Source: Octopus vulgaris
Taxonomy: Eukaryota
DNA length: 64,000 bases
Assembly (NCBI GenBank): GCA_951406725.2
Contig: OX597826.1
Location: 82,956,001-83,020,000, forward strand
Direction of reading: 5' to 3'
Shown here: piece after piece, positions 10,804-63,806 of the stretch
How positions within the stretch are numbered: position 1 is the first letter of the stretch
Layout: each line of letters opens with the position of its first letter
Made by a program: the position numbers and the translations under genes
Notes under the pieces: model-generated
What the model saw: only the letters and a program-made list of their open reading frames with translations
Told to the model about the DNA's origin: nothing
The model's database searches: none

Positions 10804-10899
10804 GGGCATATGGTATAGTGGTTAAGAGCGCAGGCTACTTAGTCCAAGATTCCGAGTTCGATTCCAAGCAGTGACCTGAACAACAACAATAACAACAAA

Positions 10900-10945
<46 letters not shown>

Positions 10946-11099
10946 GTAACATTGAAAAATACCTTAGGAATGAGAACCCAGGTTCGAAATTTCCCCAAGA
11001 CACCTGAAGAAGGCTGGAGAGTATATCAGCCGAAACATTGAGTTAACAATAAACAAGTTGAGGACAAATATCCGTCGAATGTAAATAATGTAAATAATG
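10804..11099 (+). mobile_element. tRNA-headed SINE with internal (AAT)n and a hammerhead-like 3' part
   Basis: A box TGGTATAGTGG 10811-10821, B box GAGTTCGATTCC 10854-10865, (AAT)n spacer, hammerhead-like core, short tandem tail AATGTAAAT x2. Confidence 0.75.
10999..11044 (+). ncRNA. Minimal type I hammerhead-like motif, probably decayed
   Basis: ACAC-CTGAAGA-A-GGCTG..CAGCC-GAAAC-ATT-GAGT. Core and stem II are intact; stems III and I have mismatches. Confidence 0.6.
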
Positions 11100-11187
11100 A
11101 TTACTAAACATTTTGACACCTCATACGTCAAAATCGGCAAATCGGTTCTCCAATCAATTAGGAAAATACGCGCACACACAAGCTGTG

Positions 11188-11248
<61 letters not shown>

Positions 11249-11393
11249 AGTAGGTGAATGAATTATCCTATGTTTATCGTCAGCATGGAAAATTCGTTTA
11301 ACCGAAACCTGGGTAGCAAGGTTATCATTATCGCTTTGTTTACCATGTAGGCAATCATCGAAACTTTTGTTTGTCTTGTTGTCGAGAGAGGAT

Positions 11394-11487
11394 CCCTTTC
11401 TTTCCTGATGAGAAGATTGCATAATGCACCCTTTATTCCTTTGGAATGAAAATATGCTGTCTTCGAAACATGTGTCGAGAGTAAAGG
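11394..11487 (+). ncRNA. Type I hammerhead ribozyme with intact core
   Basis: TTTC-CTGATGA(11405-11411)-GAAGA..GCATA....TATGC..TCTTC-GAAAC(11465-11469)-ATGT-GTC^GAGA. Stem II is GAAGA/TCTTC plus GCATA/TATGC. Stem III is the palindrome ACATGT. Predicted cut after 11476. Confidence 0.85.
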
Positions 11488-11526
11488 AATTTTGTTAACA
11501 TCTTCGTTCGACTCCATTCTTTCATT

Positions 11527-11582
<56 letters not shown>

Positions 11583-11586
<4 letters not shown>

Positions 11587-11919
11587 CGCATATTTGCCAT
11601 TTGAATATGGCTAACCCCTAAGGGTGGATGCTACTGTAGTTTGTAGCCCCAGGAAGATATCTCCTCCAGCTGGCTATAGACACACTATATGTGTCCTCTC
11701 AGTATTTGTGAAGGGAAGTCATCCTCCCCGTCTTCAACTCATGATACACACGGACTCGAGTTCAAGCGTGTGACAATCATGGTTGTAGACGAGAAGTCAG
11801 CTCCCTTCACAAATACATATACTTTATCCAGTGTCGATTGACACTGATATTGAAAAAGTGAAATCAAACAATGATAAATCTCAGAGCGAGTTATAAACAG
11901 TAGCGGTAACACATCGTGA

Positions 11920-11926
<7 letters not shown>
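11583..11926. mobile_element. Structured non-coding insert between (TA)n tracts
   Basis: Terminal direct repeat GTGACGCATAT (11583, 11916); long hairpin 11702-11816 closed by a perfect 15-bp inverted repeat. Confidence 0.55.
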
Positions 11927-11998
<72 letters not shown>

Positions 11999-12309
11999 GT
12001 ACGTATGATTACATGTATGTATATTTTATCTTTTACTTATATCGGTCATTAGACTCCTAGGACACGGCATTGAACGATTTTTACTCGAAGGAATTGATTC
12101 CAGTACTTTATTTTTTGTTTAGCCTGGTACTTATTCTATCGGTCACTTTTGCCGAATCACGAATTTACGGAGATGTAAGCATACGAAAACCGGTTGTCAA
12201 GCGGTAGTGGGGGACAACTACACACATATGTATATATATATATAGATAGATATAGATATAGATATAGATATATATATATATATATATATATAGATAGATA
12301 GATATATAA

Positions 12310-12372
<63 letters not shown>

Positions 12373-13625
12373 GATAGATACATACATACATACATACATA
12401 CATACATACATACATAGAGAAAGAGAGAGAAAGAGAGAAGAAGAGAGAGTGTGATAGATACATAGATAGAGAGAGAGAGAGGAGCAGATAGAGAGAAAGA
12501 GATAGAGAGAGAAAGATTTGTGTGTATATGAGGATTTGCAATTTTTCTTCGTGCGCTACGAATGGACGGATGATCTAAAATGTGAGTTCACTGGAAATTG
12601 AAGGGATTAACTGTTAATGCAGACAATATTTTAGATATGACAAAGCGCAACAGATGTTTTTGTCAACATTTAATGTCTCTACAAAACAGTTGCTGAACTC
12701 TCTCCTTTCAAGTGACATCATAAAAATAAATGGACAAAAAATTCAAAAACTGTCACTAATGCAGAAATGATTAATTCACATTTCGGAAAAGATTTCGCAA
12801 GCATGTTATTTATTTATTTATTTCCATTTTTCTGTGAGACGGCGATGAAGGCAGAAGCGCTGGAACATCGAACAATGTAAAAGTAAGGCTCCTGAAAAAC
12901 TGAGTTCAATACTCGCTGGCGTTAGCTGAAATTTTTCTCCTTCCGAGATAATTAAGATGAAATGCAATTGAAGTAGGTGTACAATACCACCTGTTGTTCG
13001 TCTTCGCAAGAAATTCAGGATTTCTTAGCAATTATTGTCTTAAATGTGAGTAGAAATTATTGTTGGGGTAATTTTTATCCTTTTTATGTGTTTTTATTCT
13101 ACTTAGAGCAGTAATGATTAGAAACAGAAATAAAGCAGCGCAGAAGAAGCAAGCTTTAACGAACTTTACGTTATTTTAACGCTTTCAAAAGACTGAAAGT
13201 AGTCTTGACGTTTTGGACAGTAGTACTTCATCAGAAGGAAGATAGAATAAAACTGGAGGAGAGTAAAAGATGAGGAAAAAGGATAAAAAGAAAAAAGAAA
13301 AAATGGAAACTTTGTATATTTAGGTATAAAATATATATGAAAGAGGTAGATAGTAGGAAAGAAAATGTAAAATAAAAAGGAAGAGAAAGCTAGCAGAAAA
13401 AGAGAAAAAAAGACAGAAGAACAGAGGTGGTCACGTGAGAAAATGTCCAATGCAGGGAGCAAGGAAATATATATAACAGGCGCGTGCAAGCAGTTAAAAT
13501 ACACAAGGAAAGCAATGAGCTGCAAAACGCAAAATACAGGTACCGGTTCTCTAGTCTAGGCATTCATTCACACTTTTCACACACACACATGTTCATACAC
13601 TTACATGCCCGCCGTGCACATCTAA

Positions 13626-13664
<39 letters not shown>

Positions 13665-13667
<3 letters not shown>

Positions 13668-14041
13668 TTGCGTCAGAAATTAATTAGCATTTCTCAAATT
13701 TCTACATTAAATAGGTTAAATCAATTAACCTATGAGCTGTTCAAAACGTCTTACGCGATGCGAAAACTTAGTATGGTGTGATTTCGGTCCTTGCGAAGCG
13801 CTACCTATATCTATTAAACAAAGGAAGATTTGTCTGCATCCGCACTCCAATTTGTTGCACTGCTATGTCAACATCATAAGGCTGTAGACTCTCAAACTGC
13901 TCTGCAAACAAAGTTACGTCATCGTTCTGCGTAACAGTGAACTCGCAACAAAGCAATAGTTCGAGATATGGCCACTAGGTGACAGCACATACCTTGAGTG
14001 AAGAGCAAATCAAGGGTGCTAATTAATTTCTGACGGTAGTG
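13665..14041. mobile_element. Tc1/mariner-type MITE
   Basis: 25-bp TIRs CACTTGCGTCAGAAATTAATTAGCA / TGCTAATTAATTTCTGACGGTAGTG (2 mismatches), flanked by TA within (TA)n. Confidence 0.85.
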
Positions 14042-14077
14042 TATATATATATATATATATATGAATATATATATATG

Positions 14078-14173
<96 letters not shown>

Positions 14174-14701
14174 TACACACACACATATATATGTACACAC
14201 AGGCAGACATACACATATATCTATACATATACACAGCTAGGGAGGAGAAGAATGTAGAGAATAGATAAGAGTAAAGAAATTCTCTTTACATACAATGTTT
14301 TGATCCTTCCCATAACAGTCGAACGAAAGACAGATAATAAATATGTATTTGAATAGCTACAACATCAAGTCTGTGTATTAGTGTGACTTCACAGTTTCTC
14401 ATGTGGAAATATTAAAGTTGATTTTCAAAGACACTTTAACGTCGGAAAGACACTCTTTGAAATTTTTTATTACAATTTTAATCGAATATCAAAATCCGTT
14501 TCCTTGTTTCTTCAATAACAAACAAACCAAATAAATGTACTCTGGTAAAAATATTGTATGTATAAAACATTATATGTCTAGCCAAGTGTGTAAATTCACC
14601 GATATGATTTAAATGATCAATCACACACACACACGTGTGTGTGTATGTATATACGTTTATATAGATAGATATAGATATATGTGTGTGTGTATGCATGTAT
14701 G

Positions 14702-14737
<36 letters not shown>

Positions 14738-14851
14738 CGTGTGTGTATGTGTGTGAAAGTGCGAGTACCATTGATCATTTAGATTAAATCGGTGAAGTTA
14801 CAAACTTGGCTAGACATATGATAAATCTAAGTATGCGTTTGTTGTGACTGC

Positions 14852-14890
<39 letters not shown>

Positions 14891-14899
14891 TGCATACAC

Positions 14900-14964
<65 letters not shown>

Positions 14965-15427
14965 TATGCGCCTACCTATACTATGGAATATAAATATATA
15001 ATTTATAGAATGTAAAATATAGCAAATATTATTGTATATACATAAATACACATACGCTATCTATTTTATATCCATAGTGCATATAAATATGTTTATTATT
15101 ATATATACGATTAACGTGTGTGTGTGTATCTATATCTATGTATATATGTGAGTGTATGTGTGTTGGTATATATGTGTGTGTGCATGTATTTGAGTTGTAT
15201 GTGTTTGTGCATGTGTGTGTACATGCATACACACACACGCACATACGCTCTCATACACAAGCTTTCCTTGAGGGTATTTGACTGATCGGTTGAACCTCAG
15301 TTTTGTTTTTCTATTTTACACCTGACACTTGTTGCTTTCTCTGTTGCTAACGTAAGTTATGATCAAAGAATAAAGAAATGAGCAGATACGTGTTCATTCA
15401 CCTTAGAGAATCCAAAGCACTGATGAA

Positions 15428-15453
15428 CACGCACGCACACACAAACACACACA

Positions 15454-15506
<53 letters not shown>

Positions 15507-15507
15507 A

Positions 15508-15554
<47 letters not shown>

Positions 15555-15670
15555 ACAAACACACACAAACACACACAAACACACACAAACACACACACAT
15601 ACACACAAACACACACAAACACACACAAACACACACACATACACACACACACACACACATACACACATAT
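15428..15670. repeat. (CA)n / (ACACACACAA)n microsatellite
   Basis: Direct inspection. Confidence 0.95.
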
Positions 15671-18600
15671 ATATATTTTGGTCTCCAACTATTGATATAT
15701 ATGTTACAGTAAACCAATAAGAGCGAACGTAAATTCCATTGACATGTGTAGGCTGCTGCTGCCCAATTTCTGCATCAGATACATTCAGCATCGCAGCAGA
15801 AAATGTTTGGCGAGGAGCAAGGAAAAGTAAATACTTCTAATGAAATATATTCAAAATAGATAAGCCTTGGGTCGGGGCTTTAAGAGAGAAATCTAACTGA
15901 GAAAGGATTTACAGCTCTCAATAAAGGGCGTATCAGATGTTTACAGGCAGATATACAAATTAATCCATGGGAATTCTGAGAATTCAAAAGTATAACATTA
16001 AAGATCATAAATTTAGATGAAGTTATTAAGAATATTACATGTTTGACAGTATAAAATAAAAACAGAAAGATAAAAGATTAATAAAGTAGGAAAGAAATAT
16101 ATGTATTGTGATGAGGAAATCTCATTCATCCGTTGCTATAAGCCATCCTCTGCAACTGATACAAAATTAGCCAGGTATCTACATTCTCAAATATATCTAA
16201 ATCAACGCCAATGTATTTAGACGCAGAGGCGTGCATAAATACAGGCACACTCCTCTTTACTACGAAGACCATCTTACACGTTCTGATGTATATTCGCAAC
16301 AATATACATGCCTCATATCTATAAATATAAGCTATTCGTAATTTTACACAGAAATACCTCTATAGAGAAACATGTAAATATACGCATATACATACACATA
16401 CATTCGTACATAATATATATTTATATATACGTAGACTGATGGTAAATGCTCTCCTTCAGAGTAGCAGGATATCCTTTTACCTCTTCCGAAATAATCTCAG
16501 ATTCCAACAAGCCAATCGTCTGCACAGTTTTTTGGCATAAGAATGCATCATTTCTCATGTGGATTTCCAGATTTTACAGCAACGCTGACTTCAGGATTGC
16601 AACGACTCCTGGCCTTGTGTATTCTGTTTGCAATCTGTGGTGTAAACTGAATTGTATAGCAAATATCGGAAAATCGAAATCAAATGGACGAACCATCGTT
16701 GGCCAGTCATCTCATCTCAAGTTTATAATTCAATAATAGTCTCCCACACAACAACAAAGCATATTTACAAGATGGGATGATTTGTCTTGCTTTGTTTTCT
16801 TTTTCGACGAAATAAATTTCATGAAATTTTCAAGAAACGGAAATGGCATGTTGAAACGTTTATGCCTCTCCCAAGATTACCATCAACAATTCGGAACTGC
16901 TTAGCCTAATCTTATATTGCTCATCTCAAAATGGAAATTTGTCTGTTTTGACAAATTTCAAATTTTCGGAAATAGAATGAGGTAGCTCTCATTGCAATCG
17001 CTATGAACGGCGTTAGCCAAAATATAATCCCAGAAGTAATATATTTCATTTTCTATCGTCTTTAACTGACAAGTTTGCACACCAAATAAATGAATAAATA
17101 AATAAACAAACAAATAAATAAATATTCAATTGTGCTTATGTGTGATAATTAGGTGTGAAACTCAACTGAGAAGCTCAATAAGTTCAACACATGTCCACAC
17201 TTGTCACTCGCCGCTGCGGACAGGCCGCAATTTTGAATTTAATTATTTTAAATTTGTGAATTCTCCTTCATAACTTCCTTGATAAGAATCGCTATTAAAG
17301 CCTGTGTCTTTACTTCTCATTACAAATGTAGTTTCGATTAATTAAAATTTATTTTTGTCTCACATTAAGTATATTAGGTGGCACTTAACTGTTCAAGACA
17401 CTCTGCTATAACAATGTCAGCTCTTTGCAACGACAAATTCATTATAGTTAGTTAAGCATGTAATAATATCATCTAATGTCATGTTCATTGAGAGAAATAT
17501 ATTTTCGTCTGGTGAAGGAATTTCAAATCTGTTGAAGGAAAATCAATCATGAGCGCAAACAATATTTCAGATGTGTGTCATTCAAGGTCAAGTTGGTCAC
17601 CAAAATCTAGAAATGATTCATCATATTAATTATGTTTTCTCTAGAAGTAAATTGTATTTAACTTTATTTATTTATTTATTTGGGAATTTACTTTGCCAAT
17701 CCAGCTGTTTCTTGTTTAGTTCCAAATGGATTTACAACCCCCAGACTCACGATCAATGACATTCCTGCCATGACCACCCTGTCATTTTTATTAGCCTAGT
17801 GTCGTATCCCAAATTATATTATTGAATTAGTCGTTGCTGAGATAGGAGGCGCTAAACAAAGCAGCTTCACTCTCACCAGCTAAAGAGCTTCTTTATGTTT
17901 GCCGGAACTGGTAAAACTAGCAGCCTAATACTCCTTAAATAACTCCCTACTATCTTAAATGAAATCAATAGAACACTAGAACATGTATTCCTATGCCTGC
18001 CTAAAAAAAGGGGCAAATCTTGTAATACTTCTGATCATAGATCTTCTTTTTGATCTATAGTGATTTAAGGGGTAGATAATAAGGATCAAAACCACAGGAA
18101 TGTCACGGGCTCCACCGGGTTTCCAATTAAAATTACAACTAATCTTGTCGGGCTATGAAACTGTCGATGTATTTTTTAATGAAATCAAGGTCCAGTAGTA
18201 AAACAATTGATGAGACTGCGATGTGCTTCAACTTTCTGAGATAGCGAAGACTTCACTCTAATACTGGAGTTGTGCTTTTCTTTTTGGCCTTGTAGAAATG
18301 AAAGGCGATGTCGATCTGAACTCACAACACAGAAAACTGGAACAACAATCACAGGTGTTCTCTCTGTGGCTCTTCCGATCTGTGCCAATTCACCTATATT
18401 TATTACATTATCTCTTGATGAGCCAGTGGGAGTAAGCGCTAAACGATCACACCAGTTGCTAAAAATAATAACCAAATGTCCATTAAATCACACAGTACCA
18501 TCTTCAAAATGATGTCAGTGGAAAAGTCGGGGGTCAATGTCTTTTGATCTACAGACATAGAATAACGAGAGCTGCGGGTGGAACGGTCTACCTTAAGTGA

Positions 18601-19740
18601 AGTTACAAATCTTGTTAAGTCAGGGTTCATCTGAGGTTATGTAACATCTTTCTCTCTCTCTGTCTATATATCTCTCTCTGTCTCTCCCTCTCAATCTCAT
18701 CTCTCTTTCTCTTTCCTCTACACCGAGGATACCAGGAGCGATATGCAATTAAGAACCAGCTGGAGGTGAATCTGATCAATGCAGAGGAAAATAAGGAATT
18801 ATTTGCAAATGCATAAATACCTCCTTGCATTAGGCAATTAGTTGGCAGATCTCCAGAAGTCGAACAGAATTTAAATGCAATTCCTTCCTTCTGCTGCGTT
18901 CTAGGTTCATTACCATAGAGGTCAACCTTTTTATTCCTTTCGGTGTCAACAAATAGATTACTGAGAAGAACAAACGACTCCTAATCCGCAAAGAGTCATT
19001 TCTTTTCAGTTTCCTTTTCACGATTGAAGCAATGGCTGTGGTCAGTCCTGGAGAAAGAAGAGCTTCACAAGTTTGAATGTACCGTGTTTCAGTGTAGCAT
19101 TTCTGTGAATTCAAACGGAGCTGAGGGCACATGAAATAAAGGGCCTATATTAAATTCCTGCTTCGTTTCAACCATAATTTTTTTATTATTTTTCGTATGA
19201 GATTTTAGACCCTCAGTACACGGTTTTACATTTGAATTCAAGCGAAATTTCTCCATCGTCTGAGATAACCCTACCCCGCTTCTATGTGACCGATTAATTT
19301 GCTAAATGTAACAAATTTTTCTCAGATATACCCTATCTCTTAACTGAAGACGAGATTCTTGCAATTAGAATATCTTTGATCATAGGTCAAGTCCCCTAGA
19401 TCAAAACTGGTAGGTGTATTGAAAAACAACAAGAACAAATACAACAATAATAACTGAGAGATAAGCTCATAAGGGACTCTACGTGGTGGTCACTCGACCT
19501 ACAAGAAACAGCTGTCAGATCCTTCTCAAATCACAACAGATTATCTTACAATGTATGATATATTTGTATATAATGTCTGGGCAAAGGCGTGGAACGTCTT
19601 TAAAATAGTAGTAAATAGCACGGGAAGAAATTATTTGGGGCTTATCCACAATTATATTTTCACTAAGTTGCAAAATTGCAACCTTAGCAAACCGTGTCTT
19701 TAGAAAATGTTCATTCTTTACTTCATTTTCAAGACAAATA

Positions 19741-20987
19741 TTAGGTTGTCCCAAAAATAATGGCCGCTCTAAGTGTAGTGATTTCAAACGCAATTTTATC
19801 ATAGCATTTTAATGATATTTTGGGTGAATTCCTACATACTTAATAATTGATGTATGCTCTTTAATAATTTTCTACTTATTTCAGACAGAAAACATTCTTG
19901 AAGCAGAGGCGCCTTTAATTATAAACATGACCAAAAAAGATCTTCGCTTACTTTTCTTGCATGGGTCCGATCTTGGGCACAATGCCTCCCAAACTGCTGC
20001 CAATATCAACAGAGCATGGGGTGAGGGGTCCACAAGTGATCGCACAGTACGATGGTGGTTTCAGAAATTCCGTAGAGGTGAGGAGAGCCTTGAACATGAG
20101 AATGGTCATGAAGTCTTGACAATGAACAATTGAAAGCAATTATTGAACAAAACCCACGTCAAAATGTCAGAGAAATGTCTCCGGCACTTGATGTTGCTAT
20201 TTGCAACAGTCTCACGCAATCTGCAGGTGTTTAGTAAGGTGAAAAATCTCGATATAAATGGGTACCGCATGAGTTCAATGAAAATCAAAATGTTCAACGT
20301 TTTGAAGTGTGCTCGATGCTCTTTCTGCGAAACACTAATGATCCTTTTCTTCAACGAATAGTCACTTGTAACGAAAAGTGAATCCTTTATGATAACCGTA
20401 AACGATCAGGTCAATGGCTTGATCGTGATGAGTCCCCCAAACATTTCCCAAGACCAAAGTTGCATTAGCAAAAGATTGTGGTGACTGTCTGCAATTGGTG
20501 TTGTCCATCATTGCTTTCCGGAAGCCAATCAGAGCATTACAGCAGAGGTTTATTGCAATCGACTCGCTGAAATGAGAGCTGCATTAGTGAATCGGCGTGG
20601 CCCAATTCTGCTCCATGATAATGCACAGTCACATGTTGAAAGAATGACGCTGCAGAAACTTACAGACTTGGGATACGAGACTTTACCACATCCTCCATAT
20701 TCTCCTGATTTTTCACCCACTGACTACCATTTTTCAAGCATTTAAACACGTTTTTAAGTGATAAAACTTTCAGATCCAAACGAGAGAGGGAATCAGATTT
20801 CAAAAATTTCTTAGCAGCAAAGCCAATACGTTTTTATCAACGAGGCATAAATAATCTCGTTGACCGATGACAAAAATGCATTGATGTTCACGGCTCATAC
20901 TTTGACTAATAAAAACATTTCTATTGTTAATTTTTCCAGAATAAAATTATAGTTCTGAAATCGGCCATTATTTTCGGAACAACCTAA
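19741..20987 (+). mobile_element. Full-length mariner transposon (cecropia/Hsmar1-like), inactive
   Basis: TA-flanked TIRs TTAGGTTGTCCCAAAAATAATGGCCG / CGGCCATTATTTTCGGAACAACCTAA, length 1247 bp. Confidence 0.92.
19927..20908 (+). pseudogene. mariner transposase, frameshifted
   Basis: MTKKDLR..TAANINRAWGEG..RTVRWWFQKF; WVPHE; VTCNEK*ILYDN; LLHDNA; HPPYSPDFSPTDYH. Confidence 0.9.
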
Positions 20988-22429: not shown

Positions 22430-22940
22430 TTAAAATTAGGTGAGTTCGTTCCTGATCCTTTCACAGCTTATCGGATTTTTTTCAACTGGCTAATTAGTGG
22501 TTTGTTGTGTTTCGATTCTGTAATAAAATTCCGGTTTGCCGCCATAATTTTCCAAACATCTTCATGTTCACATAGCAAAAGTCTCTTTTATATTAAATGT
22601 TTGCCTGAGCTTTCTCTTAAATACAGACATACAATTTCGTATTTCGTGGTTTTGCAAAATTTCGATTGGAAACATGTCTATTAATTGTTGACCGACTTAC
22701 CATATTTTCCAATGTCTCTGACTGCCTTTTGCATTCGATGCTTCGTCGATTTCTAAGAGTTCTTTTAATGATTTTTCGATTTTCATATAAAATAAGTTTT
22801 TATGTGATCAAATATTCCAACAGTTCTACAATTGGAATTTACCTGGTTTTTTCTTCTTTATCACTTATTACATCTTAATATTTATATTTTTCTTTTCTAT
22901 TCGGTTTGTAAGAAAAATTTGACTAACATTGGAAAAAGTT
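22430..22940 (-). mobile_element. Penelope-like (Neptune-type) GIY-YIG region, decayed
   Basis: Minus strand across frameshifts: IECKRQSETLENM, TFNIKETF, CLENY.G/QTGILLQNR. Resembles the KRQPKNL and C.E.YIGQTG..L..R motifs. Confidence 0.45.
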
Positions 22941-28246: not shown

Positions 28247-28293
<47 letters not shown>

Positions 28294-28298
28294 GTATG

Positions 28299-28334
<36 letters not shown>

Positions 28335-41790: not shown

Positions 41791-42603
41791 TTTTACATAC
41801 ATACAAACGGCACGAACAGAGCATAGCCGCCTTTCATATTCAAAATTGTGTTCATCTACAGCAGGAATGTATAACGGGCAAGAATAAGCGAAAAGGCATG
41901 AAACTACATACGGACAATTACTGCATAGACTGGACCAGATACAGAGCTGGAATCGAGGTAAACAAAAGTTGCTCACGGACAATGAACCGGTCAAGCTAAT
42001 GACAGAGGAAGGCAAAAGATGGACAGGAGGTTCTGAATGGCATCAAAGCGTTTATGCATTAATTATGCAGAATTACGTATCGAAATAATTCAGTAGAAAA
42101 AACAGGAATATCGGAAAACTTAATTATTTTTGTGATCGTTTCTGTATAATTAATGAATAAATGCTTTGATGGCCTAAACAACCACCAGGCAATCTTTTAT
42201 TATACATTGATGTGTCTTTTACCATTTCTATGTGTCAGTCATTGGGTTCCGGCCATGCTGTGCTACCAGCTTGAACGATGTAGACGGACAAATCGACACC
42301 AGCGCTTACTCTTTAGGCCCGGCACTTCTGTATGTGACTTTTCCAGAACCGCTAAGTTACCTGGACGTAAATAAAGGAACACCGGTTGCCATGCGATGGT
42401 GGAGACAAGCACAAATACACACACACACACACACACACAAGCATATATATATATATACTTGGCTACCAAATCCATTGCCCCGAGGCTATAGCAGCAGACT
42501 ACTGGCCTTGATGCCTCGCAGTGGGACTGAACTTTAGGGCCCATAGTTGGGAATCGAGATTCTTAACTGTACATCCACGACACCGCCTAATGTGTATACT
42601 ATG

Positions 42604-44810: not shown

Positions 44811-45255
44811 ATTATCCAACACACGCACACAACGTATATGCTCTGCTTGTTCGCCGGTCGGCTGCGATTTGACGCGGTAGAGATGACTCTCACAAAGCGC
44901 CGGGTTTTAAAACAGCTGAAAGTCACAGTCATGGACAGGTTAGACGACTAACTCCAAGTCCCATTTAGGAGGGATGGGCATCGATGTTTCTCCATTTTTG
45001 TGATTTAACAACATCGCGTACATGAACCGAAGCAGAGACAAATTGCATGTGCCTCTCTATGACTATATTAAAAATGGTTTAACAGCTGTGATGCCCGAAC
45101 GATGTAGACGGGAGCGGAGTTGTTTGGCTGTCTATAAATATGAATTTTAGGTGTTTTAACGCGCGGTACTTCGAGAGAGTCATCTCCGCCGCGTCAAATC
45201 GCAGCCGACTGACGAACAAACAAAACACATAGATTGTGTACGTGTGTTGGATAAT
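44811..45255. mobile_element. MITE with ~80-bp imperfect terminal inverted repeats
   Basis: ATTATCCAACACACG..GTCGGCTGCGATTTGACGCGG.AGAGATGACTCTC and its reverse complement at ~45175-45255. Confidence 0.8.
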
Positions 45256-45276: not shown

Positions 45277-45316
<40 letters not shown>

Positions 45317-45858: not shown

Positions 45859-45921
<63 letters not shown>

Positions 45922-46882: not shown

Positions 46883-46932
<50 letters not shown>

Positions 46933-46940
46933 TATCATTG

Positions 46941-47370: not shown

Positions 47371-47374
47371 TTGA

Positions 47375-49310
47375 TCGTTTCAAGTGCTCCTACAATCACT
47401 GGTACAGTAACCGTCCTGCGATGTCACATTTTTTCGATTTCAATCAGAAAATCTTTATATTTTCTGAGCTTATGAAATTCTTTTGCTGAAATATTATGAT
47501 CACAGGGTATGCTTATGTCAATCGATAAAGAGTTTATTGTTTTGGTCTTTCACAACAATATCTGATTTATTAGCTTTGACGGTCCGCTCTGTACATACAG
47601 GAAAGTCCCAAAGAATCGATATAGTTTCTCCTTCAGTTACAGCCTCGGGATGATGCTTATAGTCAGCAATTTTTATTTTATAATGCCGACATATCCAGTG
47701 TAGATATTGGCCAGCTCTGTCATGTCTGAATTTATTCTCTACTGCTGCTAAAACCTTACACCCAGAGATTAGGTGGTCCACTGTTTCAATTTCATCGTTG
47801 CAGTATCGGCACTTTGGGTCTGCTCCATTCTTCGTCCCGTTGGCTTGATAGTTCTGGATCATTAAGCTTTGATCTTGGGCAGCCAAGATAAAGCGTTCGC
47901 TCTCAGCCAATTGTTCAAACGCTTTTTGCTTTACCATTGACTTCACCTTCTCTGCAACAACAGTTGCTGCACTTACATCATGCTGTTCAATCTGGATATT
48001 ATGCATGGACTCGTTAATAGAACTTTTGCGCTCCTTCATGACAGAATGAAGCTTCTTATGTCTCTCGTTGTTTTCAACGAGTTTTTGCATCCAGTCTTTA
48101 GATGTTTCAAAATATTTCGCCTTTCCAATTCTGGTGGTTTTGCATTTTATTGCAAAGCATTAGCTTACAGATTTTCCTGTAAATCTTAATTCGCTCATAT
48201 TCCAGTTCAATACATTGGAACTATAGATAACAACTGGAACTGCTAAAGAATTTATAGCTAACACCTTGCTACGTGCATTTAAGTCGGATTTGGGGACGGT
48301 TCGATCTCTCCTGTAACATTCCGTTCTGATCTTCTCTTACCTGTTTGCATGTTGAATGCCAGATCCCTCATTTATTTCGAGGTATTTCTAAGTTTTTTCC
48401 TGCTCCAGTTGTTTTATGATTGTGTCAACATATAACACCACTGAATGTGAGGTCTTCAATTTCAAAGACCAAATTCCATCCCGATGTCACCACTGACTGC
48501 TTTCGCAGGCAATAAACCTTCAAGCTCATTATCGCCTTTGCCATAGAGTTCTAAGTCATCCATATAAAATAGATGACTTATTCTCTTTCTTGTGGCCAAT
48601 TCTATACCCATACCTTCAGGAAGTTTGAAATCACAGGAGATATTTTGAAGATATCCAGCGATTTCAAGATCCATGAATGCGGTATGCTGTCAAAGACCAT
48701 CTTATAATGAATCCTTGCAGGAACTGAGATTTCTGCGTTTGTTATGACAGTTCTCAAAGACCAAGTGATTGATCAAGAGTTGGTTTTTGCATCTACATGA
48801 ACCTCGTCGGCACACCCTTTGTTTAGTGGCAAAAAATGGTTCTATTCCATAAATTTGTATGATTCCTCCACGAGGATGGATGTTAAAATGTTATACGTGG
48901 CAGATAGACATGTTATGGGCCGATAGTTTTGGAGAAATTTGGTTTCATTATTCTTTGGAAGTAGATGAGTAATTCCTGTTGCTAAACAATCAGGATTTCC
49001 CTTAAGATCTCTCATAATTTCATTGAATAACTGAACTAACTTTTCGCCTGCGCACGGGAACGATGCGAACCAGAAATCTGGCACTCTATCATAACCAGTG
49101 GATTTCTACTTATGAGCCTTTGTGAGTGTCATCCTTAGGTCTGCTTTTGTGATGTCTTCCCATGCCAGTTCTGGTAAATTTTGGTTGGATCCGTCTGTGC
49201 GTCGAATGCAGTCTAAATTTTTATTACATGTCTTCATCACTCCAAACAATTTTCCAAAAGTTTTCAGCTTCTTCCCTGGGAGGTTTCTCTTCTCAAATCT
49301 TCGTATTCTT
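47375..49310 (-). mobile_element. R4/Dong-clade non-LTR retrotransposon relic (RT, CCHC, RLE)
   Basis: NYRPITCLSATYNILTSI; ISHLFYMDDLELY; ILAAQDQSL; CRYCNDEIETVDHLISGC..RHD; ILWDFPV.T..TVKANKSDIVV. Confidence 0.9.
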
Positions 49311-54100: not shown

Positions 54101-55113
54101 TAATGAGGATAGTATCAGAAACTTCGTATTTCCCCGCCATCATTACAAACATTACAAAACGAATTGTGATTGAATCCACAAATATAAAGTTCACTTTGGT
54201 AAGTGGAATGAATGAAATTATTCAAACACTTTTGGAATTTCTATTGATTGCAATTCTTTCTTTAGCTTTTGTTTAGCTTTTCAGCTTTCTTTTTAAAAAG
54301 CAGAGAGCTGGCAGAAGTTTCTGCGCTTCGGGCGAAATACTTAGCAGCATTCCGTCTGATTTAAATTCTGAGTCCAAACTCCGCCGAGGTCGACTGTGCG
54401 TTTCTTGCCTTTGGGGTCGATAAAATAAGTACCAGATGAATGATAAGATCGATTTAATCGACTAAGTCCTCCCACCAAAAGTTTAAACATTCTGCCTAAA
54501 GGAAATAAGAAATCCTGTCCACTAAAAATAAAAACACTGTGTGTATATATATCTGTGTGTGTATACACACACACACACAGACGTATATATATGATAAATG
54601 CTAAAACGAATTACTGTGTCAGTGTGTCACACTTCGACTCCCTCTCCCAGTATTCAATGACACTTCTACTATTCCTCATGTTGGGGTGAGAGTAATTGTA
54701 GGCAGTGAGACGGTGACGGCGGTAGTAGACTCAGGGTTGAGATGGTAATGAGGTGTTAGTAATAGTATGAACTGTAGTTGTGATAGAGGCGGAGACGACA
54801 GTGATGATGGTGGTGGTGATGGTAGCCGTGGCAGTCAGAAATGACGGTGGTAGTAAATGATATAAAAAAAACAGTGGTGATGGTGGTGGAGGGGAAATCA
54901 AAGGTATTGAGGGTGGTGGCGTCAGAAGTCTGAATGGTGTGTGTATAGCAGTTGTGGTGGGGATGATAGTGGTACTGGTGATGGTGATGGTTGAAGACTG
55001 TCAGCAGAAAGAGAGAGAGAAAAAGAGAGGTTAGATAAAAAAAAATCTGTACTGACTCCCTAATGGGCAGACAAAAAATGTTGTTTATCATGCAGTTTTA
55101 CAATAAGCTCAAA

Positions 55114-55166
<53 letters not shown>

Positions 55167-55177
55167 CATACATATAT

Positions 55178-55210
<33 letters not shown>

Positions 55211-55491
55211 TATATAAATAGATGTGTGTATTTTTCCCTTGTTAATAATTAGCACGGAAATATATATATCTATATAATATATAATATATATACATACATA
55301 TACATACATATATCAGCCGGCCGCTGTCACTTTTTTCTGAAAAATAGGGGTAGCTTATCCTGTTCATGCTATGTTATTAGCATTATCCTGCGTTTGAGAA
55401 TTTCAAATTACTTCTTTAACTTTCTAAGATATCTCAACGCTTCTAAACCAAACTTCGTTTGTTAGTTTACGCTCATCGTAATTTGAATGAA

Positions 55492-55533
<42 letters not shown>

Positions 55534-55662
55534 CAATAATGAAGCCAAACCAAATAATAACGTTTTGAAAGCATATAATACGGGCGCTTGAGATTTTGCT
55601 TAAAATACAACAGTTCTTCGGCATTTAAACATTTCAAAATATGAAATACTTCAAATTTTCAA

Positions 55663-55741
55663 GTCTATTAACTGGAGAAGGTATTTCATAATGGGATTTC
55701 CCAGCCCATATTACTCAAGACCTGAAACGTACGAATTAGAT
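55663..55741 (+). ncRNA. Degenerate hammerhead-like motif
   Basis: CTGGAGA (one core substitution)-AGGT..ATGGG..CCCAT..ACCT-GAAAC-GTA; stem I is poor. Confidence 0.4.
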
Positions 55742-55925
55742 ACTTTCAAAATAATATTAGGTTTCAGTGCATTATTACAAATTGATGCAAAGACGAATCA
55801 ACCTGATCTGATTCCATTTACTCTATCAGACATTGTTTAGCTTCAGTCGAATTATCTGGTACCGTGCATTATTTCGAAGCAAGACATGAAATGTTGTACA
55901 CACACACACGCGTGCGCCCGCGTGC

Positions 55926-55999
<74 letters not shown>

Positions 56000-56479
56000 G
56001 TATGTATATATCGTTGCTATTATGCAAAAGTGTCGTAAGTCCAAAACGTTGCTTTTTCAGAAGAAGGAAAAGTAGTTTCCCCATTCCGTTTCTTTTCACA
56101 TTAGCAACGGTTCCAGCTTAACGATAATTCTTTGTTGGGTGTACATAAAATTGTAACTCCATGCATGTACGATATTTCCAGTCAGAAATATTTTTGCAAA
56201 ACTGTCGTATGTGGAACTTACTACACTTTTGAAAAATGCTAAACCGTTGTTCTACACTTTGACAATTTTTCATATCTTGGCTTCTGAAGCAGCTGGAGAT
56301 ACGATAGTTTGACCAAAAGGAGCTGCTACTGCAAGCAATGTTAATATTCAAAGAAAAAAACGCATTTGGCCCAATTTGGACATTCGACAGTTTAACATAA
56401 TAGCCACGATAGGTGATGCAAATAAGTGTCATCCTCCAAGTTTCACCAGTGTTTTTTCTTTTCTTTTTCTTTTCTTCAG

Positions 56480-56647
56480 GTGTTGGCTCTAGAGGCATCA
56501 GGAGTTAACTCCCCCTCAACTTTCAGCTTTATTTCAGAATTCGAGGCAAGTGCATTCGAAGCAACTGGAAACATCCTCAGAAACGTTTTGCGGCTCCGTG
56601 AGAGAATCTCCGATGCCATAATGAGGGTTGAACCGTTAGCATTCTAA
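56480..56647 (+). mobile_element. Possible CRE-type RLE C-terminal fragment
   Basis: LALEASGV..STFSFI...ATG....RLRERISDAIMR resembles A.ET.G.....F.....TG....L.QRLS.AIQRGN. Confidence 0.4.
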
Positions 56648-58029
56648 TCTACCTCAACAGCTTGTTATGTTAATCAATGCCTTCCATCATTGGTCTGTTC
56701 GAGTGAGGTTGCTTTTGGACTAACAAACACACCAACGAGATACAACATATTTTAAATACAGAATCATTTTATTCTGTATTAGACAGTATTTACGATTCCT
56801 TTTGTCATGTGACCAACACTGTATGGAGCCATCTTGTTATTGATTCACTCCATCAGATAAGTTTTTATTCTCCAAGCTATGAATTATTCAATATACTAAA
56901 ATAGTTTATGAAAACAACATCAAGTAGAAATCAGAAATACGAGTCGAATTTGAAGCCAAGAAAATAGTTCTCTAATTTCAGGAAGTTTTGGAAGAATATA
57001 CAAAACCTGTTTGTCTCTGAATCAAGCGATATCACTTTACGTTGTATATCTATTACATATATCTGTATAGTTAAAATATTCGTTTGCAACTACAAGTTTT
57101 CAGGTTCGATACCACTGCGTAATAAAATACCCTAACAAGTTGATCAACACTTTTTTTTTCTTCTTGCTTTTATGAATTTGGAAACGGAATGGAAACTATG
57201 TGAAGCCTCACGTATACTTTAAATGTCTATATCAGTAGAATATCAGAGGTAGACGAGATATCAGGAGCCAAGAAATTCTGCATATATAGAACGACGAACA
57301 TACGGTTGAAGTGTTGGGAATTCAATGCACATCGTCAGTATAAGAGACAGTTACGCTGAAGTAGGTCGAGGAAAATAAAACCAGCCAGGCTGTGTTTCTG
57401 TCCCCCGAAACTACGCAAGATGGGCATCCATAGCAGACCAACATTCATTCATGTGACTATGTGACATTAATGGTTGTCTTTGGTGTCTAGGCTATGTAAA
57501 GTTATGGGGAGCAGAACATACTCGGTAGCATAGCAAGCTGCTTGTTGGTGTACTAAACTTTTCGTACCTGTGACACGCTGGTGTTGACTGAGAATTTTCA
57601 TAAGGGTCTGCGTGTCTGAGGAATACTCAACCAGACATTCGCTAATTTATTGAGCATGGAATTCATAACAGAATCCTTAATCATAACAGAATCGTAACAG
57701 GCTCTTAACAGAATCCTTAATCCTTATCGCCCGGTATACGTATCTGTGTGTGTGTTTTTGTGTGTGTGTGTTTGTCTGTCTGTATTTGTGTGTGTGTGTG
57801 TGTGTTTGTGCGTGTGTATAAATGTATTTATATAAGTTTAGTAATAAAAATGAGAAGATAGAACTCAAAATATTGGTTTCAAATTCTGGCACAATGCCAG
57901 CAATTGTGGAAGAGGGTGCAAGCCGATAACATTGGCCCCAGGTTTCAACTAGTACTTGATTTTATCGATTCGAAAGGATGAAAGTCATAGTGAACCACGG
58001 AAGTCAGAACATAAATTCGGACGAAATGC

Positions 58030-58750
58030 CCCTGGGGCCGCAGGGAGGAGCAAGAGAAGGCGATAACAGCCGAGCGAAGTGTTTATATCGCGCCTACAAG
58101 ATGCTGTCATCAATAAAATCCAATGGGTGATGCATCAACATTGGCAGAGAAAAACTATGCTACATGGACTTTGCAGATGATATCTGCTTGACTTCTCATG
58201 CATCTAAGGAAATGGAAGAATTAGCTGGCCGATTTCCACACTAAAATCCAACTTGTCGGCTTCAACATAAACCTTAAAAAGGTTACTGCTGCCAGTAACT
58301 GTCACCATAAACAGCAAGACCGTACACGAGGTAGACAGCTACGTCTATCAGGGAATATAGTGACGGAAAATGGAATCCTCCTCCCGGAAATAAGAGAAGA
58401 AAAGCTGGGTGACCTTTAGGAAGGCAGAAAACCCCACGAGAAGTCTCAAGGCTTCGATGAAAATTAAAAGGAAGAATTTCAACGAATATATCGTGCCAAT
58501 AGTGATTTTAAGCAATGAAACATGGACTCTCAACAGTAGCATCACGAACGCCCTGATTTTAGCTCAACGGAAAAGATAACGAATCATGTCCGGTATTACA
58601 TTGTCGGACGAGAAAACTAATGCCTGGATTCGAGATCAGACGAAAGTCAATGATATTCTAGGAATCATCAAGGAGAATAAAATTTTGCTGGGCTGGCCAC
58701 ATCCTACGACCCAAGGACAACAGGGGTGCAATCAGGGTGACGGGATAGGA
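58030..58750 (+). mobile_element. RTE-clade LINE RT/C-terminal fragment
   Basis: GAREGD, MDFADDICL, YVYQG, ETWTL, GITLSDEKTNAWIRDQTKVNDIL..WAGH-like. Confidence 0.75.
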
Positions 58751-59356
58751 TACTGGATATACATATATGTGTGTGTGTGTGTGTATGTATGTGTGCATAT
58801 ATATACATACACACGTGCATATATACATACGTATATGCGTGTGTGTGTCTATGTATATGTATAGATATTGTTTATTTTTAATTGGTTGATATTACGAAGT
58901 GATCCATGGACCAAGATTTACACTCATTGGCAATTCTTAAAAGGGATCAGGGCCACTACATGAAACTCTCTGCGCTTGAATCATTTATTCAATTTGTAAC
59001 TTCTGTCGATTAAATAATATATAAAATTTGTATATTCGCACACACACACACATAGACACAACCATCATTAACTGCGTGGGTTCCTTCTCATGCTCAAGAA
59101 TTTCAATTTCCCTCTGTTGAAAGAAAGAGATATCAGCAGAAAGAAACACCAGTAGCTTGCTTTATAATTGGATTACAACGACTGAAGAATGTGACCCGCA
59201 GAAGAATATGAAAGGCGCCTAGTTAAACAGTACCCCGACCGCTTCCTACTTAGATTCATTAGACCGCGTGAACTGCCACCCCGACGAACGTACCACCATT
59301 ACATACATATTTATGTGTGTATTTATATGTGTATATATGTATTTCTGTATGTATGC

Positions 59357-59392
<36 letters not shown>

Positions 59393-59424
59393 TTATATAT
59401 ACATGTATATATACATGTATATAC

Positions 59425-59463
<39 letters not shown>

Positions 59464-59703
59464 AACATATATATATTTACATATATATATATATATATAT
59501 ACATATATACAAACACACACATATTTATATATAAACATATAATTACACATACATATATACATATATCCATGAGGTATTGTCTGATGTATACTAATGATAT
59601 AAACATTTTTTAATCCAAAATAATGTAAGTTATGAAAAAATAAACGCTACCAACCATTGAGTTGTATTGTTGATTTTTTTTTTGTTAACTTCCATTGTCT
59701 TGG

Positions 59704-59767
<64 letters not shown>

Positions 59768-59772
59768 GAAGG

Positions 59773-59823
59773 AGCTTCTACAGGACTAGAACGGTTTCAT
59801 TCAAGAGAAATCTTCAGGAAGCT
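59773..59823 (-). ncRNA. Type I hammerhead-like motif in a ~140-bp TA-flanked insert
   Basis: Minus strand AGCTTC-CTGAAGA-T-TTC-TCTT-GAA-T-GAAAC..GTA^GAAGCT. Stem I is a perfect 6 bp; the stem II closing pair is a U-U mismatch. Confidence 0.65.
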
Positions 59824-59901
59824 TATATAATAAATTAATTTTACTCTGCTATGTATTGAGTACCTTATTTACTGTGGTTAACCCCGAATCAACCTGGGAC
59901 C

Positions 59902-59945
<44 letters not shown>

Positions 59946-59948
59946 AAC

Positions 59949-59994
<46 letters not shown>

Positions 59995-60500
59995 GTTTAT
60001 ATATATGTATATATTTATAGAGTGGGTGAGAGCAAAATAATATATAACACACAGTGGTGCTCAAAAGAATGCGAACATAAATTCTAACTTCGTCATCCAT
60101 ACTCAGGTCTACGACCATAAGAGCAGTCCTAATCGAGCTATTATGGAAGTAATAAGATGGGTGTGCCAATCTGCTCTTGAAAAAGTAATCTTAACCATTT
60201 CATCTGCACTTGTCACGTATGACTCAATATATACGCCACCTGCAAATATGGCTGTTATGTAACATTGGTGCTAGAAACAGGTTTCGAGATAAAACAACAT
60301 ATTTTCATTATATATATATATATATATATAGGTTATAAAATGAGATAGGGGTTGAAAATTCAACCCACCATGGGATAATATATATCCAATATACTGCCAG
60401 ATAGGTACCCAACAAGATTAATACATAGATGTTAAAAATTGTCAAACAATCAGTTCATCAAATGTATTATATGGGTAAAGGTAATAATATTACCGTAAAT

Positions 60501-60891
60501 TAATACTACAAAATTAGAGAATGGAGAAACATACTTAAATCAATAAAACATCAACTATCCGATGATACCCAATCAATATTTTAATACACCATTACATATG
60601 AGTAGAGGCATTATACAAAAAGAGATATACATTAATAGTAAAAAGATAAAGAGATATAAGTAAAAAATTTCAAATATAATATGCAATTAATCAAAACTGA
60701 CAGCTGTTTCGGCAGTGAGGGCAGTCATACCTCATTTAACCTATAAGCCATAAAGGCAGGTATAAATGAGGCATTAACAAGGATGCCCCACGGCCTCTTC
60801 AGAGAATTAAATTAAATTTGTTATAATTGTGAAAAATATTATATAATCATATACATATAAATATAAAAATATAAAAATGTAAAATATAAAA
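60501..60891. repeat. Left arm of 391-bp inverted repeat
   Basis: Reverse complement of 63416-63806; only 2 mismatches found by eye. Confidence 0.95.
60685..60812 (-). ncRNA. Type I hammerhead ribozyme with extended stem II (sense to the GIY-YIG ORF)
   Basis: Reverse-complement copy of 63495-63622; predicted cut 3' of C at 60699 on the minus strand. Confidence 0.8.
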
Positions 60892-61139
60892 ACTTATACA
60901 TCATAATGCTACACTTATATAACATAATACACATTGGTACAATAAAGGAAGGTAAACAGAACAAAATAAAACAAAATATATATCAGTGTATATATTAATA
61001 TTAATAAGTACCGATATTATACATATTTGGCTAATATTTTTTTTAAAAAAACCTAACACATAGGGAGATGAAAAATAATAATTAAAACCATGGTTCAGTT
61101 CATAAAATTCTAAAGCTATAAAAGTTAATAAAAATTACT

Positions 61140-61212
<73 letters not shown>

Positions 61213-62905
61213 GATACAGTTAAGTTTGCACAAAGTCCATCCTTTCAAGAACGAAATAACTATGAGTTTAGAAATGCTGACCAGTAGGTAAAGAAAATTT
61301 AGATTAATTCGATTGGCTATTGGTTTGAAATTTAAATCACAAAAGAAAATTATACGGTTGGTTAGTCAAGGAACGCCAATATTCACACACGCATCTACAG
61401 ATCAATCGCACATACACACATAGTTATATGTATATACATACACTTATACGCATACATAATCACAAGCAACAACTAGCACATAGATAAACAAAAAGGGAAG
61501 CAACTATGCTACCATTTAGTCCTTCAAAATTATAACTGTGCCTCAAATACCGAAAAAGAACCATCCATGCCTTTCATAAAATATTTAATTTAGATATAAA
61601 TATATTTTTAAATATCAGTATGTTACTAAGTCAGATAATTATTTCATGGGTAACTTAAAATTTATAACACCGGTTTGTTGCATAGTAAACATACGGTTGT
61701 TAGATTTATCGTAAGTTTGTTATGATTCCAAGTACGCTAAAATATAAAATAAAAAATATAAAATATATATTAATTTATATATTATAAATAAATCACATAT
61801 TTACTTAATAAATTTAATGCCATAATATACCAGTTTAGGTATTAAAAAATAGAAGGGGAAGTACTAATGTAAACGCTTATGAGAACATCACAGAAATTTT
61901 TAAAAATTTATATTATAAATACTTAAGATAAAATGCGATAAAATAAATAAGAAGGAATAAACACGAAGGAATAAATACGGTTATACACATATTATAAGTA
62001 CAAACCAGTATATATGTATACATATATTATTAAAATTTAAATAAAAATAAATGATAGATATGTATGTATAAAACTACCCTAGTATAAGTAAATAAGTAAA
62101 AAATAAATAGATAACAAATTAGATGACTTGATATGTATGTAAACATCTACACTTAAATAGGCAAATAAATAAATAATTAGAAGACTAAATGCAGAGATTG
62201 ATAACAATACAATAAAATAAAAAATAAATAAAGTGAATATATATGTTATATTGTTGAAGGTAAATATGTATGGAAGGATAATTTAAAGTACAGATCCAGA
62301 GGACTATAGATATAAACTAAATATATAAGGCTGGTAATATTTATAAAGCCAAATGTATGTAAATGAAAAAATGAAAAAAATGAAAAAATGAAAAAGGTTT
62401 ATTAGTAAATAGCATAAGATACAAATTAAGGTGAGTACAAAGAAAGACCAAATATACAATAAAAACCTTCCAAATAAACACATACAAAAAACCTATATTC
62501 TCAACCTAAACACACCAAACTCATAAAAGGCTCTCCTATATTACATATTATACAATAACATTACATTATCTAGAGCTAGGTATCTAACCAAGATATACAT
62601 ATATACTATGCAATATACTATGCAATATTAGAAAACTTCAAAAATCACATATTACAAGGCAAATACCAAAATGAATATGTTATTTCCTGTCATATTACAT
62701 TTACCTTAAAAAACAAACAAAAACCCACATACAAAAACAAGAAACAAATAATACTAGACACATCTATTATTATTATACAAATGTAGCTATAAAAATTATA
62801 AAATTATAAATTTATAAGTTGTATACTTTAGAATTATAGAAGACCACAGGTATAGTTAGTTAAAGAAGGGAGTTAAAAAATTAATAATAGTGGAAGTGCT
62901 AAGTT

Positions 62906-63415
62906 CTATTTGAATCTAGAAAAGGTGAACGGTAGCCTATGAATGCAAAAGAAGTTTTTTTCATTAATGTTGTTAATAATTTGCCGACCCGCTTTAATAA
63001 TGAAAAAAATTTCATTAATACATAGAGAGCATTTTTTATTTTTTCCATTATACACAGGTGCTGAAGTTAGTATTTTCCAGTTTAATCTAAAATCCAAGTT
63101 CTTACTTTTAAGTTCCCAAATATATGCACTAAGCCCTGTAGAGTACATTCTATTTTTATTTCTAAAAGTATATCTGTGATAATTCAATCTTTGTTTTATG
63201 CTATTCATAGTTGCCCCGATATACACCCTACTACTCAATTGTGTATCTACAGTGCATTGGTAAACTACCTCCTTCCTGAGGCATTGATTACCAAATACAC
63301 ATTTATTTTTGTTTCTGCAATTACAAAGATTAACAGAATGAGGAAATCTAAGATTGGTCTCCACCCCTATACTACCATTCACATTATAAGTGTTACAATT
63401 GTTATCATCATCCAA
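62906..63415 (-). CDS. GIY-YIG endonuclease domain of a Penelope-like element; open frame, probably 5'-truncated
   Basis: CNCR..C.FGNQCL..EVVYQC...YIGAT..IKQRLNYH...TGLSAYIWELK...W.IL...Y....CSLCINE..I...IINN..E...CIHR. The called start is a TTG exactly at the inverted-repeat junction. Confidence 0.85.
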   Translation of the reverse strand: MDDDNNCNTYNVNGSIGVETNLRFPHSVNLCNCRNKNKCVFGNQCLRKEVVYQCTVDTQLSSRVYIGATMNSIKQRLNYHRYTFRNKNRMYSTGLSAYIWELKSKNLDFRLNWKILTSAPVYNGKNKKCSLCINEIFFIIKAGRQIINNINEKNFFCIHRLPFTFSRFK

Positions 63416-63801
63416 TTTTATATTTTACATCTTTATATTTTTATATTTATATGTATATGATTATATAATATTTTTCACAATTATAACAAATTTAATTTAA
63501 TTCTCTGAAGAGGCCGTGGGGCATCCTTGTTAATGCCTCATTTATACCTGCCTTTATGGCTTATAGGTTAAATGAGGTATGACTGCCCTCACTGCCGAAA
63601 CAGCTGTCAGTTTTGATTAATTGCATATTATATTTGAAATTTTTTACTTATATCTCTTTATCTTTTTACTATTAATGTATATCTCTTTTTGTATAATGCC
63701 TCTACTCATATGTAATGGTGTATTAAAGTATTGATTGGGTATCATCGGATAGTTGATGTTTTATTGATTTAAGTATGTTTCTCCATTCTCTAATTTTGTA
63801 G

Positions 63802-63806
<5 letters not shown>
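63416..63806. repeat. Right arm of 391-bp inverted repeat
   Basis: Reverse complement of 60501-60891. Confidence 0.95.
63495..63622 (+). ncRNA. Type I hammerhead ribozyme with extended stem II
   Basis: CT-CTGAAGA(63505-63511)-GGCCGTGGGGCA..ATGCCTCATTTA..TAAATGAGGTAT..TGCCCTCACTGCC-GAAAC(63597-63601)-AGCT-GTC^AG; palindromic ACAGCTGT stem III. Confidence 0.8.

Follow-up and report, generated by a model that had tools for sequence, protein, structure and literature searches.

A truncated head-to-head Hydra-clade Penelope-like element and smaller hammerhead-bearing inserts in (TA)n tracts of an Octopus vulgaris contig

We analysed a stretch of 64,000 nucleotides of Octopus vulgaris DNA (contig OX597826.1, positions 82,956,001 to 83,020,000; hereafter the window, 64 kb), in which several inserts, some of them with hammerhead ribozyme motifs, lie within (TA)n microsatellites. 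The explanation we favour, at a probability of roughly 70%, is that the largest insert, of 3.5 kb, is a truncated, head-to-head Penelope-like element (PLE) of the Hydra clade, and that the small hammerhead-bearing inserts are likely the 3' ends of other PLE families or short non-coding derivatives, likely set into pre-existing tracts by the same kind of TA-nicking enzyme. An earlier note on this DNA had proposed that a TA-targeting GIY-YIG/reverse transcriptase (RT) machinery mobilises a community of non-autonomous ribozyme RNAs here, and that it may help to generate or extend the tracts. The observation behind that proposal is mostly confirmed, and its interpretation is partly supported, although that interpretation was already in print. 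Our tests were confined to the window, public contigs and related endonuclease loci.

By its sequence, the large insert (60331-63804) is a 5'-truncated PLE inserted head-to-head within (TA)n. It lies between TA tracts of 22 nt (60309-60330) and 41 nt (63805-63845), with TA exactly at both junctions. The sense, or long, arm (60331-63415, minus strand) carries an endonuclease fragment, a T-rich 3' region of about 2.5 kb and a hammerhead, and its 3' end adjoins the tract at 60309-60330. This hammerhead (60699-60802, minus strand) is a canonical type I motif close to the 3' end, with CUGAAGA, an 85-nt stem II, GAAA, a palindromic stem III and a GUC site; its proximal stem I is short, at only 2 bp, and it folds better than shuffled sequence (z -4.79). 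Joined to the long arm at the truncation point is an inverted terminal copy (63416-63804, plus strand) of 60503-60891, 389 nt in length and 99.5% identical, which has a second hammerhead at 63505, ends 172 nt before the true 3' end and then runs into (TA)n.

The endonuclease frame (62906-63424, minus strand) has 172 codons and retains the catalytic residues Y27, Y40, G42, R51, H55 and E110 of a GIY-YIG endonuclease. A CxCX5C linker (C6, C8, C14) lies ahead of it, a single Cys falls between the GIY and YIG positions, C104 and C107 precede E110, and a CxH stands near the C-terminus. CxxC and CxH flank the conserved E and N, and CCHH is absent; the published diagnostics of the Hydra clade are this linker, the same CxxC/CxH pair around E and N, and the absence of CCHH (Craig et al. 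2021, PMC8557442). Assignment to Neptune, Nematis or Naiad was rejected, since there is neither a CX2-5CxxC linker nor CCHH. At E<=0.001 the endonuclease has 4258 homologues, among which P0136 and P0140 have the Hydra DKT motif and P0140 also RWR. Its predicted model has a pLDDT (predicted local distance difference test) score of 94.6, and GIY-YIG nucleases rank first in Foldseek (T4 EndoII, I-TevI, UvrC), at E 0.15-0.8 and none at E<=0.001. Pfam gave no match for the window endonuclease and weak GIY-YIG/RVT_1 matches in one of six homologues, and a word-based search among the longer proteins found none.

Longer homologues have an RT upstream, and the window frame stops right at the end of the endonuclease. 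No PLE RT was found in the window by tblastn with 150 homologues, several of them RT-bearing, and we attribute its absence from this copy to the 5' truncation. Of the GIY-YIG/RT machinery named in the earlier note, then, the window holds a fragment of the endonuclease part, and the motifs above support its assignment as a TA-targeting enzyme of the Hydra clade.

The likeness to described Hydra-clade elements such as Hydra-1_Obim and Penelope-13_HM takes in the linker, the missing CCHH, the CxxC/CxH pair and the (TA)n target, together with a near-3' type I hammerhead with palindromic stem III and an inverted, 5'-truncated copy with opposed hammerheads. The same survey lists (TA)n as the target for 26 of 27 Hydra families and describes inverted 5' copies, of which Penelope-13_HM has one, with two hammerheads (Craig et al. 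2021, PMC8557442). TA targeting is deduced in that literature from insertion sites, a role for the linker being put forward as a hypothesis, and nicking by the PLE GIY-YIG domain is described as providing the 3'-OH for target-primed reverse transcription. The window PLE departs from these elements in other respects. Published Hydra elements carry an RT and are mostly under 3 kb whole, whereas here the RT is missing, the spacer between the endonuclease stop and the hammerhead alone takes up some 2.1 kb, and the truncated sense arm is 3085 nt long; the size below 3 kb is a published tendency rather than a strict criterion, and nested insertions may lie in the 3' region. Stem II, at 85 nt against about 10-30 nt in the Hydra clade, is likewise unusual. 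Compared by eye with Hydra-1_Obim, the window PLE is of a different family, the endonuclease and the hammerhead both differing.

Two side observations concern this insert. The stretch from the endonuclease stop to the terminal repeat (60900-62905, about 2 kb) is non-coding and T-rich in the sense direction, includes (AAT)n at 61140-61212 and is far longer than in 26 relatives. Just beyond the flanking TA tracts lies a 43-nt inverted repeat (60265-60307 and 63865-63907, 95%), whose right copy has a possible decayed hammerhead; the PLE may have landed mid-way in an older palindromic element.

Related endonuclease loci (the best 80 of at least 385, with repeated families included, so that their independence is overstated) allowed the arrangement of PLE ends to be followed in other copies. 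A hammerhead lay at most 1.5 kb after the endonuclease in 26 of the 52 loci with at least 300 nt downstream, and in these 26 it stood -8 to 483 nt from the endonuclease stop, 1.5 kb downstream having been searched. Among 23 loci with 250 nt beyond the hammerhead, eight had (TA)4+ within 500 nt. The TA at L039 and L043 was discounted as internal to the element, which leaves a junction TA in 6/23 loci against 0/41 control windows (p 0.0013). Core-to-TA distances are similar in the relatives (63-166 nt) and in the small inserts of the window (56, 125 and 141 nt). In two comparisons (L039 with L042, about 65 nt past the hammerhead, and L016 with L038) some copies break off at a TATA-like site inside the element and pass into TA where sister copies continue; by analogy, such early-ending Hydra copies would echo the short arm of the window PLE. 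Towards the 3' end of many Hydra loci a GCTC...TTGAGC motif recurs 60-170 nt past the hammerhead (L001, L002, L006, L016, L025, L027, L039, L059, L064, L074) and is possibly a conserved hairpin recognised by the RT; it was not seen by eye at the 3' end of the window PLE.

Tract coordinates bear out the statement that five inserts each lie between (TA)n tracts. Besides the large one, these are insert 1 (11246-11529, TA tracts of 57 and 53 nt), insert 2 (11583-11922, 53 and 59 nt), insert 3 (55532-55926, 36 and 61 nt, the TA on the right being preceded by a compound (CA)n/(CG) run) and insert 4 (59762-59904, 57 and 39 nt). The list of five was selective. The window, animal DNA rich in microsatellites, has 51 pure (TA)n tracts of at least 12 nt, the longest single one of 69 nt, and it contains 20 TA-bounded segments with at least 100 unmasked nt and at most 4 kb, one of them a ribozyme-free miniature inverted-repeat transposable element (MITE). 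Self-BLAST found no common sequence between the window PLE and the small inserts.

Hammerheads were sought with a relaxed, unbiased scan of both strands, with 30 shuffled windows as the null. The scan gave 15 matches, six of them scoring at least 6, against 1.43 per shuffled window. Five of these six fall inside the named inserts: +11405 in insert 1 (score 14, where shuffles give 0.03 matches of at least 10 each), +63505 and -60802 in the large insert (8 each), -59817 in insert 4 (6.3) and +55672 in insert 3 (6.0, carrying the substitutions A6G and U16.1A). The remaining one, at -41283, lies outside them, 1160 nt from TA. Four inserts do carry hammerhead-like cores, as had been claimed, and only those of 11246-11529 and 60331-63804 (two copies) are intact, the other two being degenerate. 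Rfam named a ribozyme family in none of the 150 listed matches of 193 in the window, nor in the 29 for 10790-11935; its matches were microsatellite-driven microRNA and other weak chance matches.

Insert 1 (plus strand, 284 nt) has an intact type I hammerhead with its core at 11405-11411, GAAA at 11465, GUC at 11474-11476 and a stem II of 53 nt. It belongs to a high-copy family, with 1914 (X1), 55 and 149 contigs placed from three public runs; the raw-read run X21, with 0 reads placed on insert 1, provides no test. Because position 11528 is followed by TA in 29 X1 contigs and seven X13 contigs, the 3' end of the family is fixed and adjoins TA. None of the 21 listed variant rows hits CUGAUGA or GAAA, which is weak alone, with about one expected. 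At paired sites four of six variants keep the pair and two break it, and two further variants replace a U-U mismatch by a pair and render stem III palindromic. Depth of coverage falls about fifty-fold at 11326-11355, where other copies continue differently, and we therefore regard insert 1 as composite: two abundant segments meet at a rare junction near 11320-11355. Upstream of 11325, one contig has 197 nt with no match. Of the 12 listed joints of the insert, one is opposite-strand and none is tandem (head-to-tail), a count in which short contigs can miss arrays. A supposed second hammerhead half at 11306 was dropped, being missing from the family variants, and the hammerhead pattern of insert 1 had 0 matches in metagenome contigs. 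These features agree with an end of PLE type or with a derivative that has an internal deletion, and do not establish insert 1 as a retrozyme.

The remaining two hammerhead-bearing inserts are degenerate. Insert 3 (plus strand, with putative boundaries) has its core at 55672 and is likely an old PLE-type end; insert 4 (minus strand) has its core at 59817-59811, 56 nt from the TA-adjoining end. In insert 4, stem I has 6 bp, stems II and III are weak and the site is GUA. Neither has the intact hammerhead of a retrozyme, given A6G and U16.1A in insert 3 and the broken stems II and III of insert 4. By the shuffle rate, a chance match in a given segment of 143 or 395 nt would be rare (about 0.003 and 0.009, respectively).

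Dispersed motifs of this kind have a precedent, since thousands of single hammerheads have been attributed to truncated PLEs (Cervera and De la Pena 2014, PMC4209133). The minimal hammerheads of PLE pseudo-LTRs (LTR, long terminal repeat) described there resemble those of the window in occurring as dispersed single motifs and close opposite-strand pairs, with palindromic stem III and long stem II. However, stem II of insert 1 (53 nt) and of the window PLE (85 nt) is far longer than in those hammerheads, and TA targeting is not reported in the portions of that work available to us.

Within the window, hammerheads lie closer to (TA)n than background, so that the outcome named in the earlier note as a refutation, hammerheads no nearer to TA than background, did not arise there. 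For cores against unmasked sequence, p was 0.002 with four strict elements, 0.008-0.016 with the unbiased set of five and 0.04-0.06 once cores were grouped by locus (p 0.002-0.06 overall, n=4-6). Adjacency to TA is not specific to ribozymes, because ribozyme-free repeats, picked via self-BLAST, open reading frames and by eye, also end near TA: 10/19 do so within 200 nt and 4/19 within 10 nt, the MITE being one of these repeats.

In the explanation we favour, an intact master element elsewhere would nick pre-existing (TA)n, and reverse transcription would begin at the 3' end of the RNA. As a rule it would stop early, and what remains would be a short end with a hammerhead, bounded by TA on either side. 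In the large insert an AT-rich site 172 nt inside the RNA end would have primed a second complementary DNA, whose joining to the first would have given the head-to-head arrangement. Host slippage and length-biased target use would account for the long TA tracts, and some small families may ride in trans.

A number of results weigh against this explanation. The cores of inserts 3 and 4 have scores in the chance range and fold no better than shuffles (z -0.42 and +0.85, respectively), no coding sequence ties inserts 1, 3 or 4 to a PLE, and these three inserts match neither the window PLE nor any of the 80 related loci, which, with their repeated families, are not independent. Insert 1 has a compact self-paired fold (z -2.49) and is composite, which would also fit a non-autonomous RNA. 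Finally, the tracts beside hammerhead elements are longer than others (median 47 against 25 nt, p 0.016), as element-driven extension could also yield.

Another way to view inserts 1, 3 and 4 is as complete non-autonomous ribozyme RNAs, namely retrozyme monomers, which may be circular and which a Hydra-type RT/endonuclease would have retrotransposed in trans. We hold this view to be possible, at odds somewhat below even. Mobilisation of retrozymes by PLEs was proposed in 2020 (PMC7761336) and argued again in 2026 (Li, Clavereau and Pollet, bioRxiv 10.64898/2026.07.22.740005), and the non-LTR retrozymes of metazoans (PMC7229834, PMC7761336, 10.64898/2026.07.22.740005) are, like the inserts, short non-coding repeats with type I hammerheads, proposed to be PLE-derived and PLE-mobilised, and occurring also as monomers. 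Insert 1, at 284 nt, is within the retrozyme size range, is non-coding and high-copy, has ends that pair, and occurs in two runs presumed to be RNA, its transcription being putative. Retrozymes, however, are defined by tandem units with a hammerhead in each, whereas the inserts are single units, and the available parts of those reports give no link to TA microsatellites. The absence of a head-to-tail joint among the 12 listed, the apparent internal rearrangement of the insert 1 copy and the contig with 197 unmatched nt upstream also count against a complete unit, and one hammerhead alone, with no tandem or read-through partner, cannot release a circle. Moreover, a 5'-truncated PLE end in a TA tract would look identical. 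The status of the small inserts as non-autonomous RNAs, as opposed to 5'-truncated PLE ends, is putative, and so is their mobilisation by the PLE family of the window; for some families, carriage in trans and the explanation we favour overlap.

Insert 2 calls for separate consideration. This segment of 340 nt, without assigned strand, is strongly structured, with an 8-nt direct repeat at both ends and an imperfect hairpin of 115 nt at 11702-11816, and folds far better than shuffles (z -9.50). It has no hammerhead core by the scan of both strands and no Rfam ribozyme. By eye, it has one 9-mer in common with the 5' end of Naiad_Ovul and another with the 3' end of Naiad_Obim, the 3' word differing in Naiad_Ovul; this is a weak lead only. 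A Crypton or a solo LTR would be a further candidate identity. The MITE, which the earlier note overlooked (13665-14041, 377 bp, no strand assigned), lies between TA tracts of 38 and 21 nt, lacks a hammerhead and has CACT...AGTG ends, one of them CACTA, with terminal inverted repeats identical at 23/25 nt. We take it to be of the EnSpm/CACTA type, and its position would imply a second route into TA, by way of a DNA transposase. We infer that insert 2 and the MITE are separate TA-targeting elements. A broader proposal would make TA microsatellites a joint landing niche, with enzymes of Hydra-type PLEs carrying several unrelated non-coding passengers in trans, among them insert 2 as an undescribed class copied, with no hammerhead involved, from a template that is circular or a little longer than one unit; we think this unlikely.

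More doubtful still is the idea, raised in the earlier note, that PLE insertion itself creates or lengthens (TA)n tracts, through RT slippage or target duplication. Besides the greater length of the flanks of hammerhead elements, it can call on left-plus-right flank sums of 110, 96 and 63 nt, which approach or exceed the longest pure tract of 69 nt. The evidence nevertheless leans the other way. In nine loci of other animals, where tract density is 5.7 per 64 kb against 51 here, Hydra ends have junction TA runs of just 10-34 nt, and tract length appears to follow the host. Similar flanks occur at the ribozyme-free insert 2 and MITE, 40 of the 51 tracts flank none of the named elements, and the inserts had been picked for conspicuous TA. 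A literature search, with most subscription journals and Repbase outside its scope, returned no paper on TA tracts made by PLEs or on hammerhead mini-elements of cephalopods. Least probable of all is that the adjacency is background only, dense TA tracts clustering with all repeats, so that hammerheads come to lie near them through chance or because both build up in tolerant regions. A tract is no more than 500 nt away for 25% of the unmasked sequence, ribozyme-free repeats end near TA too and the per-locus p is modest, but TA exactly at the two PLE junctions, the fixed TA at the 3' end of the insert 1 family, the excess of junction TA among relatives and the published (TA)n targeting all speak against it.

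Other repeats of the window bear less directly on these questions. The span described in the earlier note began at 10804, where we find a tRNA-headed repeat (10804-11100, plus strand; tRNA, transfer RNA) whose middle is (AAT)n, whose tail holds a minimal hammerhead at 11004 and whose end is a 9-nt tandem. TA tracts do not bound this repeat, the distance from its end to TA being about 90 nt. Its A/B-box-like head was read by eye, and ARAGORN found no tRNA gene. Some repeats of the window resemble what we take to be cephalopod short interspersed nuclear elements (SINEs), and three copies of one SINE-like family (1641, 42458, 45733) begin 1-9 nt from a TA tract, with no ribozyme in the scan. Long imperfect palindromes without TA bounds occur at 44811-45255 (67% over 469 columns) and 42014-42198 (70% over 195), and decayed fragments of non-LTR retrotransposons at 47518-48159 (a weak zf-RVT match, E 0.00017) and, judged by eye only, at about 58040-58750.

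The content of the window is mainly a new family of a described clade at a described target, together with scattered hammerhead-carrying ends such as have been known since 2014, and a specialist is unlikely to be surprised by it. The role of the PLE hammerhead, and the mobilisation of retrozymes by PLEs, are still debated in the field, and the locus has modest value as a test bed. Insert 2 merits a study of its own. The large insert is a young copy, with catalytic residues intact and arms 99.5% identical, and would provide a direct substrate for an assay of (TA)n nicking.

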